A model generated the notes under the pieces. It searched no databases. It was not told the origin of the DNA and worked only from the letters and a program-made list of their open reading frames with translations. A DNA stretch of 31,356 nt from Candidatus Dormiibacterota bacterium. Lineage in GTDB: Bacteria; Chloroflexota; Dormibacteria; Dormibacterales; Dormibacteraceae. Both the position numbers and the translations under genes were made by a program. The DNA lies in contig DASYBH010000261.1 in the NCBI GenBank assembly GCA_036500885.1, positions 1 through 31,356 on the forward strand. The letters run 5' to 3'. The first letter of the stretch is position 1. Each line of letters opens with the position of its first letter. Shown one piece after another: positions 10,639 through 15,404 of this stretch.

Positions 10639-10792
10639 TGCAGCACGAAGTCACGAAGAGCACGAAGACGCACGAAGAGATTCGAGGTCAGCCTCAGCGC
10701 TCTGGCTGACCCAGACCCCTCCATTCCTTCGTGCGTCTTCGTGTCCTTCGTGGCTCCGTGCTGCAACTCATTCAGCTAATCGCCCGCCCGAA
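10639..10792. repeat. CACGAAG-unit long-hairpin repeat (REP/MITE-like), copy 1
   Basis: Imperfect 39-bp inverted repeat (10639-10677 / 10727-10765) built of four CACG(A/G)AG units around a 49-nt spacer. A homologous copy lies at 25840-25990. Confidence 0.9.
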
Positions 10793-10857
10793 AGCTCACA
10801 GCCTTTCGCCAGGGCACTCCACGTCATCGGAAGCACTCCTCGTTGGCGCTGGGTCCG

Positions 10858-11859
10858 TCAGGCGCCTACCGCGAGCTCCTCGTTCTCGTCGTTCTGTGCG
10901 AGGAGGTGGCGCAGCGCGTTGGCCTGCGAGCGACGTCGAACCTCTTCGGCGAAGTCGTTCAGCCACTGCAGCGCCGGCTCGAGCGCCGGCATGCCCGGTC
11001 CCGTTTCCACGGAAGCCTGGACCGCGGTCTCGGCCGCGTCTGGCATGCTCGCAAGGCACTCCAGAGCCGTGCGGAGGCGGTCCAGGTCGGGCCGGCGAAT
11101 GCTCAGCCCGGGGCCCTGGAGCGGCCGGCGCCTGGCGTCCCGCGACGCGCGGGCGCGGGTGCGGGCCTGTCTGACGACGTCCCCGACGATGTGGCGCGCG
11201 TGCGCTTCGGGATTGCTGCCGGCGCGATCGCGGATGCTCCTGGTGACCTCGCTCAGGTAGGGCTTGATCTGGCCTGCGACGTACGCGGATATGTCCGGAA
11301 TCTCGGACATGCCAGCCGCGAGCTGGAGCTCGGCGATCACGCGGCCCTGGTCGAGGAGCTCGTATGACCGGCTCCGGCTCAGGCCGAACTCCTGCTTGGC
11401 GTACCGCTCCCACGTCCGGTATCCGAGCGCCGACCATGCGCGCCCCTCGTGGGCCTCCATGAGGAGCAGGCAGACGTGCCGGGTCGCACTCCGGATTCGC
11501 TCGGTGAGGGCTCTCGCGCCAGCCTCGTTCAACGGCCGGCCGTTTCCCGCGCGGGATGCGGGCCGGACGGGCGCTCCCTGCGCCGGCGTCATGGACCGGG
11601 CCGCGTGGTCCCTGCGAGGCCGCGTCATCGGCAGGTCTGACCGCGCCGCTCCGAGGTACGGCGCCTGCTCGGTGAACACCGCTTCGATCGCATCGCAGAT
11701 CGACATGCCGGGTGTGACAGCCGCGACGTGCGGCCGGAGCTTCGCTGCCACAGGCGCCGGCACCGCAACCTCCCCCTGCTGGTGGTAGTCCTCCAGCACG
11801 TGGAGACAGCCGTCCAGCAAGCGCAGCTTCTCTCGGCGCTCGTTTCGGTCGTGATGCAC
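10858..11859 (-). CDS. Hypothetical DNA-binding protein with phage-like HTH (WSALGYRTWERYAKQEFGLSRSRSYELLD)
   Basis: GTG start with GGAG upstream and GC3-biased codons. The central helical segment resembles uncharacterised phage/prophage HTH proteins (recalled resemblance, not searched). The N-terminal ~70-aa domain is unknown. Confidence 0.7.
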   Translation of the reverse strand: MHHDRNERREKLRLLDGCLHVLEDYHQQGEVAVPAPVAAKLRPHVAAVTPGMSICDAIEAVFTEQAPYLGAARSDLPMTRPRRDHAARSMTPAQGAPVRPASRAGNGRPLNEAGARALTERIRSATRHVCLLLMEAHEGRAWSALGYRTWERYAKQEFGLSRSRSYELLDQGRVIAELQLAAGMSEIPDISAYVAGQIKPYLSEVTRSIRDRAGSNPEAHARHIVGDVVRQARTRARASRDARRRPLQGPGLSIRRPDLDRLRTALECLASMPDAAETAVQASVETGPGMPALEPALQWLNDFAEEVRRRSQANALRHLLAQNDENEELAVGA

Positions 11860-11983
11860 TCTTGGCCTTCTCCCAGATCAGTGCACGGTGGTTCACCAGT
11901 CCCCCGCCGCAGCGTTCCCCCGTGAGCCGTTACTCGCCGCGACAGCTCGAACGGCAGGCGGGGCCGCTCGGCCAGGGGGCGCC

Positions 11984-12223
11984 TCACCTCTCGTGCGCTC
12001 CCCCGCTCGTCCGCCGCCGCGTTATCGGGACATGAAGCGTTCGGTGCGCGGGACGCGGCACCAGGTCGGGACGCGAAGCGTCCCAATCGCTGCCGGCCGC
12101 CTCGACGCGCTGCGCCGCGCCCGGCTCGTCCGGCGCGACGGGCCACGGTCCGTACGGAGCCTCCGCCACCAGTCCCAGCCAGACTGCGTATCCTGTCGTC
12201 GCCGCCGCCTCCGTCTCGCTCAT
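11984..12223 (-). CDS. Small hypothetical protein, 79 aa (MSETEAAATTGYAVWLGLVAEAPYGPWPV...)
   Basis: Strong Shine-Dalgarno GAAAGGAGG 7 nt before ATG 12223, GC3-rich codons, and same strand directly upstream of the HTH gene. Confidence 0.55.
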   Translation of the reverse strand: MSETEAAATTGYAVWLGLVAEAPYGPWPVAPDEPGAAQRVEAAGSDWDASRPDLVPRPAHRTLHVPITRRRTSGGAHER

Positions 12224-12680
12224 CGGGGCGCCTCCTTTCTCGTGGTCCCGCGGCCCAGCTCGATTGGCCGAGCTCGAGCGGACGAGTGACATTGTCAGCG
12301 GACAGATGGGGGCGATGGTACTGGCGATAACTCCAGTTTTCTCCTAGGCGCTTCGCGCAGGTAATCGCCTACGCATTCGCATCGGATCGCGGGCGCCGGC
12401 ATCCATTGGCCCGTTCGCAGCGCACGGGAAACCGTGGCGCGGCATCGTCTCTGACCGCCAGGCCGAGCAGGATCGGGTTCCTCCGCAGACACTTTCTTTA
12501 CGATTGATTCTTAGTGTTGCTGGCTGCGGCAGCAGTGAATCTCGTTGACCATGCACCAATCTATCGCGGCGGTGACAGATCGGCGGCCTTGACGCTCGGT
12601 GATCGGCTCTGACAACGTTGTGGAGGTGTGGGTCGTGCGGACAGATCCTTTTCCGGAATGACGATGCAGGGCAGCGGGGC

Positions 12681-12696
12681 GTCCGGAATTCCGGAC
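12681..12696. promoter_or_regulatory. Perfect 16-bp palindrome GTCCGGAATTCCGGAC, candidate operator
   Basis: Self-complementary and 38 nt upstream of the LAL ATG. A half-site TCCGGAAT lies 30 bp upstream (12652), and there is a 16/18 match inside the HTH gene at 11293-11310. Confidence 0.6.
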
Positions 12697-12734
12697 ATCC
12701 GGCGGCGGTACGACAGGGGTCCTGAGACGCGGCG

Positions 12735-15404
12735 ATGATCGGGCAGAGCCCGGTCGCAACCACCGCGATGGACGTCGCGGCCCCGCCGGACACCGCGGAC
12801 TGGCGCCTGGTCGGACGGGACGCCGAGCTCGCCGGGATCCGGCGGGCGCTCGACGGCGGGCGGGCCGGGCTCGTCCTCGCCGGCGGAGCGGGCGTGGGCA
12901 AGACCCGCCTGGTGCGAGAGGCGATCGGCGAGATCGAGCAGCGAGACCACGTCGCGTACTGGTTGACGACGAACCGCGCCGCCACGACGATCCCGCTCGG
13001 CGCCTTCGCCCATCTGCTGCCCGCCGGCAGGGCCCCCGCCAACCCGCTCGCCCTGCTCGGCCGGGTGACCAGGTCGCTCGGCGCGCGGGCGCAGGGCCGC
13101 CGCCTCGTGCTGGCGATCGATGACGCCCACCTCATGGACGACGTGTCGGCCGCGCTCGTCCAGCAGCTCGCGGGCACCGGACAGGTCTTCGTCGTGGCCG
13201 CGCTGCGGACGGGCGAGCTGGCGCCGGAGGCGATCACCGCGCTCTGGAAGGAGGGTCTCGCCGACCGCCTGGAGGTTCGCGCCCTCGGCCAGCACCACGT
13301 CGAGGAGCTGGTCTCGTCGGCGCTGGGCGGACCGGTCAGCGTTCCCACGAGCCTGTTCCTCTGGAACATGACGCACGGCAACGTCCTGTTCCTGCGCGAG
13401 GTCATCATGGCCGGCCTGGAGAGCGGCGCCCTCACCGGTGCCGGCGGCACGTGGTGCTGGCAGGGCCCGCTCGAGGTGAGCGCCCGACTCGCCGACGTGG
13501 TCGAGTCCTGCCTGGGCCGGCTCGACCAGGACGAGACGGCGATGCTGGAGGTGCTGGCCGAGGGTGAGCCGCTCGAGGCTCGCGTCCTGGAGTCCTGGTT
13601 CCCCGCCGCCGCGCTGCACTCGGTGGAGCGTCGCGGCCTGCTGAGCTCCCAGTGGGACGGCAGCCGTCTGGCGCTGCGGCTGGCCAACCCGCTCTACGGG
13701 CACGTGCTGCGCGCGCGGACCCCGGTCCTGCGTGGGCGCGCCATCCGCCGCCAGCTCGGCGACGCCCTCGTCAGGACCGGCGCCAGGAGGCGCGACGACA
13801 CGCTGCGGATCGCGGTCTGGCACCTCGAGTCAGGCGGCGGGGGGGCGCCCGAGCTGATGCTGCGCGCGGCGCGGGACGCGCTGGCGGGGTTCGACCATCC
13901 GCTCGCCGAGCGCATGGCGCGAGCCGCCGGGGACGCCGGCTGCGGACCGGCGGCCGCCATCGCGCTCGCCCAGTCCCTCTACCTCCAGGGCCAGAGCCAG
14001 GAGGCGCTCGACGTCCTGTCCGGGCTCCGCCTCGCGGCCCTCAGCGAACCCGAGCGTGTCTGGGTCGCCGCGCTGAGGGCGCAGGCGCTGTGCTGGGGCG
14101 TGGGTCGAGCCTCCGAGGCGGAATCCGTCCTCGTGACCGCGGAGGCGGCGGCCCCGGAGGGCTCGCTCCGCGACCTGCTGACGGCCGTCCGGGCCGCCGT
14201 TCTCCTCTTCTCCGGCCGGCTGGAGGGCGCGCTTCAGGCGGCGACCAGCGTCCTCGACGGGCCGGGTGGAGACGAGCGCGCCTGCGTGCCCGCCGCCATG
14301 ACGGCGGCCTTCGCACTGGCCGCCTGCGGGCAGTCGGAGAGGGCGGTGGCGGCGGCCGAGCGCTGGATCCACGCCGCCGGGCAGATGGGCGGGGGCGTGC
14401 CGTTCGCGCCCGGCCGCCTGCTGGCCGCCCAGTGCTTCGCCTTCCGGATGGCCGGCTGGCTCGATGACGCCGCCGGGAAGTCGGAGCACGGGTACCGGAG
14501 CGCGCTGGACAGGGGCGACCATCACTCGGCGGTCGGCTGGGCGACGATGCTGGGCCGCACCGCCCTCGACCGAGGGCAGGTCGCTGACGCCCGGCGCTGG
14601 CTCAACGAGGCCCTCATGCTCTCGGGCGACTGCGGGCACGTCAGCTTCCTCCCTGGCTGCCTGGCGTGGCTGGCGGAGGCGGAGGCGCTGCACGGAAACG
14701 TCGCCGGCGCCGCGGCATCCATCGAGCGAGCCGAGGCGCTGCGCCCGCAGGCCGCCGCCCTGTTCGAGGCCGACATCGCGCTCTCTCGCGCGTGGCTCGC
14801 CGCTGCCCATGGCGACCTCTCGCGGGCCAGGGCGCTGGCGGCCGGCGCCGCCGGCGCGGCGGAGGAGCGCGGCCACCTGGCGGTCGCGATCACCGCCCTG
14901 CACACCGTCGTGCGGTTCGGCGGCGCGGCCGCGGTCGCCGCCCGGCTGGAGCGGCTGGCGGGCGTCGTGAACGGACCTCTGGCCCCCGCGTGCGCGTCGC
15001 ACGCCAACGCCCTGGCCGCCCGCGACGGCGCCGGCCTCGACCGGGTGGCGTCGGCGTTCGAGGCGATCGGCGCCCACCTGCTCGCGGCCGAGGCGGCGGC
15101 TGAGGCGGCGGCGGCGCACTGCGCGAGGGGGCGGCGGGGACGCTCGCTCTCGTCCAGCACGACCGCCCACTCCCTCCTGGACCGCTGTGGTGGCGCCCGC
15201 AGCCCCGCCCTCGTCGGCCTCAAGGCCCCCGCCCTGACCCAGCGTGAGCGACAGGTGGCCCTGCTGGCCGCACAGGGCCTCTCGAGCCGGGCCATCGCCC
15301 AGCGCCTGACGCTCTCCGTGCGGACCGTCGACAACCATCTCCAGGTCGCCTACGGAAAGCTGGGGATCACCGGCCGGCGAGCGCTCGCACAGGTGCTGGA
15401 CTGA
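12735..15404 (+). CDS. Large ATP-binding LuxR-family (LAL/MalT-like) transcriptional regulator
   Basis: Walker A GGAGVGKT, Walker B LVLAIDDAH, sensor GNVLFLRE, an Ala-rich TPR-like region, and C-terminal LuxR HTH LTQRERQVALLAAQGLSSRAIAQRLTLSVRTVDNHL. Confidence 0.95.
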   Translation: MIGQSPVATTAMDVAAPPDTADWRLVGRDAELAGIRRALDGGRAGLVLAGGAGVGKTRLVREAIGEIEQRDHVAYWLTTNRAATTIPLGAFAHLLPAGRAPANPLALLGRVTRSLGARAQGRRLVLAIDDAHLMDDVSAALVQQLAGTGQVFVVAALRTGELAPEAITALWKEGLADRLEVRALGQHHVEELVSSALGGPVSVPTSLFLWNMTHGNVLFLREVIMAGLESGALTGAGGTWCWQGPLEVSARLADVVESCLGRLDQDETAMLEVLAEGEPLEARVLESWFPAAALHSVERRGLLSSQWDGSRLALRLANPLYGHVLRARTPVLRGRAIRRQLGDALVRTGARRRDDTLRIAVWHLESGGGGAPELMLRAARDALAGFDHPLAERMARAAGDAGCGPAAAIALAQSLYLQGQSQEALDVLSGLRLAALSEPERVWVAALRAQALCWGVGRASEAESVLVTAEAAAPEGSLRDLLTAVRAAVLLFSGRLEGALQAATSVLDGPGGDERACVPAAMTAAFALAACGQSERAVAAAERWIHAAGQMGGGVPFAPGRLLAAQCFAFRMAGWLDDAAGKSEHGYRSALDRGDHHSAVGWATMLGRTALDRGQVADARRWLNEALMLSGDCGHVSFLPGCLAWLAEAEALHGNVAGAAASIERAEALRPQAAALFEADIALSRAWLAAAHGDLSRARALAAGAAGAAEERGHLAVAITALHTVVRFGGAAAVAARLERLAGVVNGPLAPACASHANALAARDGAGLDRVASAFEAIGAHLLAAEAAAEAAAAHCARGRRGRSLSSSTTAHSLLDRCGGARSPALVGLKAPALTQRERQVALLAAQGLSSRAIAQRLTLSVRTVDNHLQVAYGKLGITGRRALAQVLD

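Follow-up and report, generated by a model that had tools for sequence, protein, structure and literature searches.

The locus and its two dyads

The DNA analysed here, called the window throughout, is the whole 31,356-nt stretch of contig DASYBH010000261.1 in assembly GCA_036500885.1 of a Candidatus Dormiibacterota bacterium, and it is GC-rich (63-78%). On its minus strand, at 10858-11859, lies a gene predicted to encode a 333-residue helical DNA-binding protein with a helix-turn-helix (HTH), here termed P0001. In this open reading frame (ORF), GC content varies with codon position as in real genes, and at third positions (GC3) it is 0.85. Its neighbours are an epimerase-STAS fusion, a small ORF and a divergent regulator gene on the plus strand at 12735-15404. 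The 889-residue product of the last has Pfam matches to AAA_16 (5e-12), to TPR and, at its C-terminus, to a GerE/LuxR HTH (7e-13); an N-terminal AAA/STAND ATPase and a C-terminal GerE/LuxR HTH within about 900 residues are the make-up of a LAL-type regulator.

Two copies of one dyad lie at this gene pair. The first is inside the P0001 gene, where the 20-mer ATGTCCGGAATCTCGGACAT (11291-11310) encodes residues 184-190 (M S E I P D I), the coding (minus) strand reading ATG TCC GAG ATT CCG GAC AT. Its 16-bp core at 11293-11308, GTCCGAG-AT-TCCGGAC on the coding strand, has one intact arm and one arm with 2 mismatches, and codes for (M)SEIPD(I). This is the loop directly after the predicted recognition helix: the helix (residues 162-182) bears a near-invariant LSRSRSYELLDQ motif and is followed by the loop at 183-191 (GMSEIPDIS) and further helices. 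Among homologues, P188 of the loop is nearly invariant and S191 is invariant. The second copy, GTCCGGAATTCCGGAC at 12681-12696, is a perfect dyad (GTCCGGA-AT-TCCGGAC), which with a trailing (AT) extends to 12698. It is separated by 38 nt from the ATG of the LAL gene at 12735, occupying -54 to -39 relative to that ATG, and lies 822 nt upstream of the HTH gene start codon and 458 nt upstream of the small ORF. Between this 16-mer and the in-gene core there are 2 differences.

An earlier note on this DNA had pointed to the near-palindrome and its perfect copy. Both are present, and two scans argue against chance. In 100 shuffles of the window, the mean number of matches with ≤3 mismatches was 0.16, and two matches were found in 0/100. 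The whole assembly (3.95 Mb in 537 contigs, 87% complete) contained only three sites with ≤2 mismatches, two of which were the window pair, 1.39 kb apart; a reversed control pattern gave 1 match. The near-identity of the in-gene and external copies is thus real and unlikely to be due to chance. The third genomic site, GTCCGGAATCCCGGAC, has one arm mismatch and lies on another contig of the same genome (G000, C373 8769-8784; L002 1501-1516), apparently within an unrelated coding region, as judged by eye, and distant from any family gene. Control palindromes of equal quality occurred at about 0.23 per 350 kb, so this site is compatible with chance at genome scale, though it could be a real secondary target.

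Selection on the dyad in the loop codons

The comparative set comprised 72 loci encoding relatives of P0001, whose DNA was aligned to the loop GMSEIPDISA; 64 distinct genes were tested. A perfect 16-bp palindrome was found in the loop window of 13/64 genes, against 0.43 expected under synonymous codon resampling (maximum 3 in 1000 resamplings). With up to one mismatch allowed, the count was 31/64 against 4.5 expected. As a positional control, other windows of the same 64 genes gave 3 perfect palindromes in 1204. Many homologues with an S-G-I-P-D loop read TCC GGA ATT CCG GAC, which forms the perfect palindrome (AT)GTCCGGAATTCCGGAC(AT) within the ORF. Codon choice in these loops was unusual: among S-G-I-P-D/N loops, the Gly codon was GGA in 15/16 (17% elsewhere in the same genes) and the Ile codon was ATT in 16/16 (11% elsewhere). 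Throughout the family, selection acts on the dyad as DNA within the coding region. The idea that the codons after the HTH are palindromic in homologues was therefore borne out, as was the proposal that the palindrome encodes residues beside the recognition helix; where the dyad lies in the loop it specifies the residues there, so that site and protein are physically coupled.

The site was best described by a 7+2+7 model, with 7-bp arms around two free central bases; the arms were perfect in 20/64 genes and carried one mismatch in 19/64, and a dyad of this form occurred in or near nearly every family gene with enough flanking sequence. Arm sequences varied by lineage, with both arms shifting together and the encoded residues shifting along with them. 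Arms GTTCGGA/TCCGAAC accompany the loop F-G-I-P-N, GTGCGGA/TCCGCAC the loop C-G-I-P-H, and GTCCGGC/GCCGGAC the loop S-G-M-P-D. Devosia has GTGACCC/GGGTCAC, GTCTACC/GGTAGAC and TTCCACC/GGTGGAA are further lineage-specific variants, and the full site in a prophage is GTCCAACGCGTTGGAC. Homologues on Streptomyces plasmids, 35-42% identical in the domain, have GTCTCGC-AC-GCGAGAC, TGTCTCGCATGCGAGACA and GTCCCCCGCGGGGGAC; in all eight examined, this same loop holds a dyad of 16-22 bp that is perfect or nearly so.

Two departures from this layout were observed. In L104 (NZ_CP109165, 910-1914), the annotated gene resembles a rearranged domain duplication, and the 22-bp perfect palindrome CGTGTCTCCCGCGGGAGACACG is present twice. 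In a clade with the loop ...EIPD[IV]SG (L043, L046, L055, L058 and L075), the canonical dyad has been lost, and an inverted repeat CCCGGAC-NN-GTCCGGG with everted half-sites is re-centred 9 nt downstream, the P-D codons forming its left arm.

One site per gene

Where the loop palindrome is missing, the family gene has (T)GTCCGGA-NN-TCCGGAC(A) in another place, either at its own 3′ end or no more than about 1.4 kb away. This site falls in the last ORF codons in L007, L008, L013 and L089, and 8-200 bp beyond the stop codon in L077 and L080, where it is perfect, and in L051, L076, L041 and L063. It lies just upstream of the family gene in L009, L065 and L053, and about 1.4 kb upstream in L036 and in the window. 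Overall, 5 perfect and 6 one-mismatch external matches were found, compared with 0 and 0.23 for permuted-arm control palindromes in the same 350 kb. The gene divergent from the external site in L036 is not LAL-like; it has a PUA_2 domain.

The distribution of sites was exclusive. Among 48 distinct loci whose helix reads SR[STR]RSY[ED], 19 had the site only in the loop, 14 only outside it, none in both places, and 15 in neither. On two complete Streptomyces plasmids, the in-gene dyad was the sole copy at ≤3 mismatches. The family norm is therefore one site per gene, and the pairing of an in-gene with an external site, as the earlier note saw it here, is not the usual arrangement in the family (0/48 loci). 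Its expectation that sequence variants would co-vary with a matching palindrome nearby did hold, in that external copies follow the variant of their own lineage: in L053, GTCCAGA arms occur both in the loop and upstream of the gene, and in L041, whose helix reads SRTRSY, the external arms are GTTCGGA.

Helix residues that track arm bases

Residues of the recognition helix were compared with the bases of the arms. Helix position 7 corresponded closely to arm position 5 (mutual information 1.3 bits), with E paired to G in 43/44 cases, Q to A in 12/12 and R to C in 12/12. Helix position 3 likewise followed arm position 3 (0.8 bits), with R paired to G in 8/8 cases, T to T in 5/6, and S or A accompanying C. 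The R-G and Q-A pairings each recur within the GTCCGGA group and in distant groups or separate clades; contacts of Gln with adenine and of Arg with guanine are classic. No factor other than the family protein accompanies the dyad in every case. These two observations favour the earlier proposal that the palindrome is the protein's own binding site.

Predicted structure of P0001 and extent of its family

The layout of P0001 comprises an N-terminal helical domain (~1-75), a low-confidence linker, the central HTH domain (~105-245) and a C-terminal helical domain (~256-330). The AlphaFold2 (AF2) model is all-helical, with a mean predicted local distance difference test score (pLDDT) of 84, and its N-terminal part consists of three helices. 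Searches of Pfam, NCBIfam and PHROGs returned zero matches to P0001 (Pfam and NCBIfam at E ≤ 0.1); at this threshold neither an N-terminal ParB/Srx (CTP-binding) domain nor the DUF222 model (PF02720) was found. Nine distant members matched neither DUF222 nor DUF3102 at E ≤ 1, and gave only weak, uninformative matches to the family libraries.

A Foldseek search of the PDB with the P0001 model found nothing at E ≤ 0.001, and a profile search of PDB sequences returned only noise. The sole solved structure matching the whole central domain was SopB(155-272) bound to DNA (VIA-align Z 6.4, root-mean-square deviation 4.7 Å), with 109 residues aligned over model residues 123-241 and a Foldseek probability of 0.44. 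The likeness of the modelled central domain to the ParB/SopB fold is weak, suggestive and not decisive. The nearest neighbours among predicted structures were proteins labelled DUF222 or DUF3102, N-termini of phage Dam methylases and 'plasmid partition N-terminal' proteins; one homologue with 38% identity to P0001 is labelled DUF222 in AFDB.

A homodimer model of P0001 scored 0.57 against 0.00 for the best control, and so passed its controls. In a benchmark, this mark was reached by 20/30 solved same-chain pairs and by 1/23 solved single chains. At least 55% of contacts agreed between runs, the pLDDT of the partner was at least 66, and the modelled interface was formed by helix 107-145 and the C-terminal domain. 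Such a homodimer fits a dyad-shaped site.

The N-terminal domain (~3-85) is also encoded by stand-alone ORFs of 107-117 residues in other genomes of the same class (G034:C27, G025:C24, G037:C37 and G031:C4; L015-L018), with E-values of 1e-8 to 1e-10, and on this basis appears to be an independent module. The member in L087 (2171-2851) carries, as a C-terminal fusion, a ParB/Srx-like nuclease domain with a DGHHR motif and PHROG ParB-like matches to 1e-8; this fusion links the HTH module with ParB-type proteins.

More than 130 full-length homologues of P0001 were found, every one named 'hypothetical', mainly in soil metagenomes and in metagenome-assembled genomes labelled Dormibacterota, Chloroflexi, Bacillota and others. 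A profile of the central domain matched 4778 clusters (50% identity) at E ≤ 1e-3 and 2281 at E ≤ 1e-10; this is a large domain family without a library model. Only 2/40 relatives of the window's genome have a full-length homologue, so the gene is accessory. Across the 72 loci, there was no conserved neighbour gene, including any ParA partner; chromosomal members elsewhere have unrelated housekeeping genes as neighbours, and adjacency to a LAL gene is limited to the window lineage. No description of the P0001 family or its site was found in the literature. A 2026 preprint on 5′ mRNA structure in parB (PMC13371061) was set aside, as it concerns a different mechanism.

The dyad upstream of the LAL gene

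Two loci, L102 (64% protein identity, on a 38-kb contig) and L103, are syntenic with the window. All three share the gene order DJ-1, GerE, LAL (divergent), small ORF (58 residues in the relatives), HTH gene, epimerase-STAS fusion and isoamylase. Both relatives carry GTCCGGA-TT-TCCGGAC 25-35 nt upstream of the LAL start, with the arms intact while the centre has changed from AT to TT and the flanks have diverged. Conservation of the arms thus supports the earlier note on the copy in the LAL promoter region, and the fixed position of the dyad at the LAL start argues for an operator role here. The in-gene copy of both relatives, GTCCGAGATTCCGGAC, has the identical decayed form seen in the window, down to the rare ATT codon for Ile. 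Control of the LAL gene through the external dyad is plausible from this arrangement; repression would be likelier than activation, because a dimer at -54 to -39 would overlap the core promoter or early leader. The wider roles that the earlier note gave to the protein, as the top tier of a cascade and in control of the cluster, would go beyond these results.

The 'extra half-site' that the earlier note had listed fared less well. The 8-mer TCCGGAAT is present at 12652-12659 on the plus strand, yet it lies inside a 29-nt insertion (alignment A2 columns 116-144) that is absent from L102 and L103. The window holds five exact copies of the 8-mer, three of them within the two dyads, where about 1 would be expected by chance for an 8-mer of such composition (a rough estimate, not a computed value). 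The half-site is not conserved and is compatible with chance.

Other features of the intergenic region were also conserved. The small ORF at 11984-12223 (minus strand), directly upstream of the HTH gene, contains the motif DSRPDLVPRPAHRTL and encodes 79 residues here and 58 in three relatives. Its coding alignment is conserved from ATGAGCGAGA onward, it has no family match, and a longer 102-residue reading from 12292 is not conserved; the small ORF and the HTH gene are probably transcribed together. Two non-coding blocks are kept in L102 and L103. One, the longest such block from the dyad to the small ORF, measures about 47 nt at 12315-12361 on the minus strand (alignment A2 columns ~409-456) and contains an imperfect inverted repeat CTGGWGWTATCGCCAG on that strand. 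The other, GGCTCTGACAACGTTG at 12605-12620, contains the palindrome ACAACGTTGT. Both blocks are candidate promoter or operator elements, the first for the small-ORF/HTH operon. An Rfam scan of 10700-12900 gave no match. A scan of 11800-12800 with the sigma-70 consensus identified no promoter-like site, and two terminator-like matches in the same scan lay on the strand opposite the small-ORF/HTH operon.

Family members on mobile elements

The family gene stands after a CI-like repressor in three prophages, with an SF2 helicase and a primase immediately behind it. The Devosia member has the same setting, with a CI-like repressor before it and, immediately after it, an SF2 helicase and a Toprim primase; the L083 member precedes an AAA_25 helicase. 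Neighbours of this helicase, loader or primase type occurred only in the prophage, Devosia and L083 relatives, and not at the window gene. The lambda O gene contains the phage origin within itself, and the prophage gene order matches the position of lambda O. Among plasmid matches, 39/43 are in Streptomyces, many of them 1-4 kb from the ends of linear plasmids; example records are NZ_CP070247 (3.2-4.0 kb) and NZ_CP109579 (78.1-78.9 kb). Around the single dyad of prophage members there were no iterons, further half-sites or AT-rich tract, and the GC profile was flat (L010, L110 and L112). The relatives in prophages and plasmids fit the phage-like, domesticated origin suggested earlier for the window gene.

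Sites lying just past the stop codon fit a cis-acting site better than autoregulation. The ancestral role of the dyad may have been that of a cis-acting site for replication or segregation.

Comparison with known systems

The ParB/SopB centromere binders offer one close comparison. The SopB-DNA complex is the only domain-wide structural match to the HTH domain of P0001, P0001 is a predicted dimer, and in both cases a 16-bp dyad lies in or beside the gene of its binder; sopC of the F plasmid and parS are 16-bp inverted repeats. Unlike ParB and SopB, however, P0001 has no Pfam match to an N-terminal ParB/Srx CTPase domain and no ParA gene, and its family is single-site, with most members chromosomal and stand-alone. 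The in-gene site of the family is moreover fixed at the same loop, which has not been described for parS. With lambda O and its origin, the family shares a predicted site within the coding sequence just after the DNA-binding domain, and its prophage members share the O-like position after a repressor and before a helicase and primase. The family has one dyad, whereas lambda has four iterons and an AT-rich tract; no replication genes adjoin the window gene, for which no homology to O was found. DUF222 (PF02720), the N-terminal domain of actinobacterial HNH endonucleases, and DUF3102 (PF11300) are the nearest neighbours by predicted structure, but P0001 has no Pfam match at E ≤ 0.1 and no HNH domain.

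Binding sites inside the gene of their own binder are thus already known, from ori-lambda in O and from parS-359 within parB of Bacillus subtilis (PMC4442127). What is new is an uncatalogued family of thousands, the fixing of the site at the recognition-helix loop, the strict one-per-gene distribution and the readable covariation of residue and base.

Interpretation

P0001 most likely binds the dyad, given the loop-codon test, the one-site distribution, the helix-arm covariation, the dimer model and the conservation of the LAL-proximal copy. In the account we propose, P0001 would be a dimeric HTH protein of a large uncatalogued family, with a central domain resembling the ParB/SopB DNA-binding fold. 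Each member would recognize a 16-bp dyad of two 7-bp arms and a free central dinucleotide, the target of the window lineage being (T)GTCCGGA-NN-TCCGGAC(A). One copy of the dyad would be kept tightly linked to the gene, mostly in the loop codons after the recognition helix, and otherwise at the 3′ end of the ORF, just beyond the stop codon or upstream, at distances of up to about 1.4 kb. In the window lineage, the loop copy would have lost one arm (GGA to GAG, Gly to Glu), leaving the intact copy external, where a bound dimer would most likely repress the LAL gene. The weakened in-gene copy may remain as a low-affinity auxiliary site; looping from it, or a roadblock at it, is a possibility only. 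We put the probability of the whole account, in which a dimeric HTH protein binds the dyad of its lineage and the dyad serves here as the LAL operator, at about 0.68.

Several observations weigh against this account. The fold match to SopB is not strong enough to tell a true relative from a common arrangement of helices. The residue-base counts come from related sequences and are non-independent, so that phylogeny inflates the correlations. No site was found at 15/48 loci, although most of these are short contigs or belong to the clade with the re-centred CCCGGAC-NN-GTCCGGG. Among three close relatives, excess synonymous conservation around the in-gene copy was not distinguishable from the rest of the gene; 95/180 codons for conserved residues were identical, and since synonymous sites are thus unsaturated, ongoing selection on the decayed copy is not demonstrable. 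Finally, several homologues have their site immediately beyond the stop codon, where neither occlusion nor a roadblock can bring about autoregulation; control of transcription may therefore not be the family's ancestral role.

The last point leads to the strongest alternative, that the dyad serves some DNA transaction in cis, as an origin- or centromere-like landing pad that stays beside its binding protein, in the manner of ori-lambda in gene O or parS in parB, and that the chromosomal gene is a relic or exapted module of a mobile element whose position at the LAL gene is incidental. The lambda O-like position of the prophage and Devosia members and the AAA_25 helicase beside another would fit such a site, as would the prevalence of Streptomyces plasmids among the plasmid matches, often near linear ends. 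One site per replicon, flexible in placement relative to the ORF, the ParB/SopB-like fold with its 7+2+7 layout and the patchy distribution in 2/40 relatives point the same way. Nevertheless, the dyad is single, without iterons or an AT-rich tract, neither a ParA partner nor any other conserved neighbour occurs in the 72 loci, and chromosomal members sit among housekeeping genes. In the window lineage, synteny across diverged relatives and a site at a fixed distance from the LAL start fit an operator instead. We regard this alternative as unlikely for the window. It is considerably less probable that the external palindrome is bound by another regulator, either the LAL protein or the nearby 210-residue GerE/LuxR protein, with the in-gene likeness a coincidence. 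LuxR-type HTH dimers do bind palindromes, two GerE-domain genes flank the region, and in L036, too, the family gene comes after a GerE gene. The same arms, however, occur in or near family genes that have no LuxR neighbour, they co-vary with the helix residues of the family itself, and of only three such sites in the genome two are at the P0001 gene.

That the palindrome acts as an mRNA hairpin, in stability, pausing or processing, and not as a protein-binding DNA site, seems more improbable still. Complementarity of the arms is kept through changes, as in structural RNA, but it reaches arm position 7 around only 2 free bases; such a centre is too short for a hairpin loop, and the innermost pairs would therefore be free to vary in RNA. 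Moreover, it is the arm sequence itself, beyond its pairing, that is common to loop and external copies and that tracks the helix residues, external copies lie upstream of genes, past stop codons and between divergent genes, and Rfam gave no match. Least credible is the explanation that the codons of a conserved peptide happen to yield the in-gene near-palindrome and that the copy upstream is a chance match. The peptide is indeed conserved, and S-x-I-P-D codons in a GC-rich genome lean towards TCC...CCGGAC. The observed loop counts nevertheless exceed those of all 1000 synonymous resamplings, and the rare codons, the positional controls, the rarity of the site genome-wide and the excess of external sites all reject such an origin. 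The account of a dimeric HTH protein acting on the dyad of its own lineage remains the one that we prefer.

Implications

A broader reading of these genes is that they are 'self-addressed', and we lean towards it at somewhat better than even odds. The 4778-cluster HTH family would carry its site in the loop codons beside the recognition helix, with exactly one copy per gene. Protein and site would co-evolve by a readable code, in which E, Q or R at helix position 7 corresponds to G, A or C at arm position 5, and S, T or R at helix position 3 to C, T or G at arm position 3. The module would have moved repeatedly between phage or plasmid replication regions and regulatory roles on chromosomes, of which the LAL promoter would be an example.

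If this is true, a function would be predicted for thousands of 'hypothetical' proteins, together with a predicted DNA target legible in each gene, and the natural series of matched protein-site pairs would suggest a specificity code of one residue to one base. As the cis-element and the protein loop would share nucleotides, recombination could not part the site from its binder. For this genome, a specific regulator-operator pair would be nominated upstream of the LAL gene.

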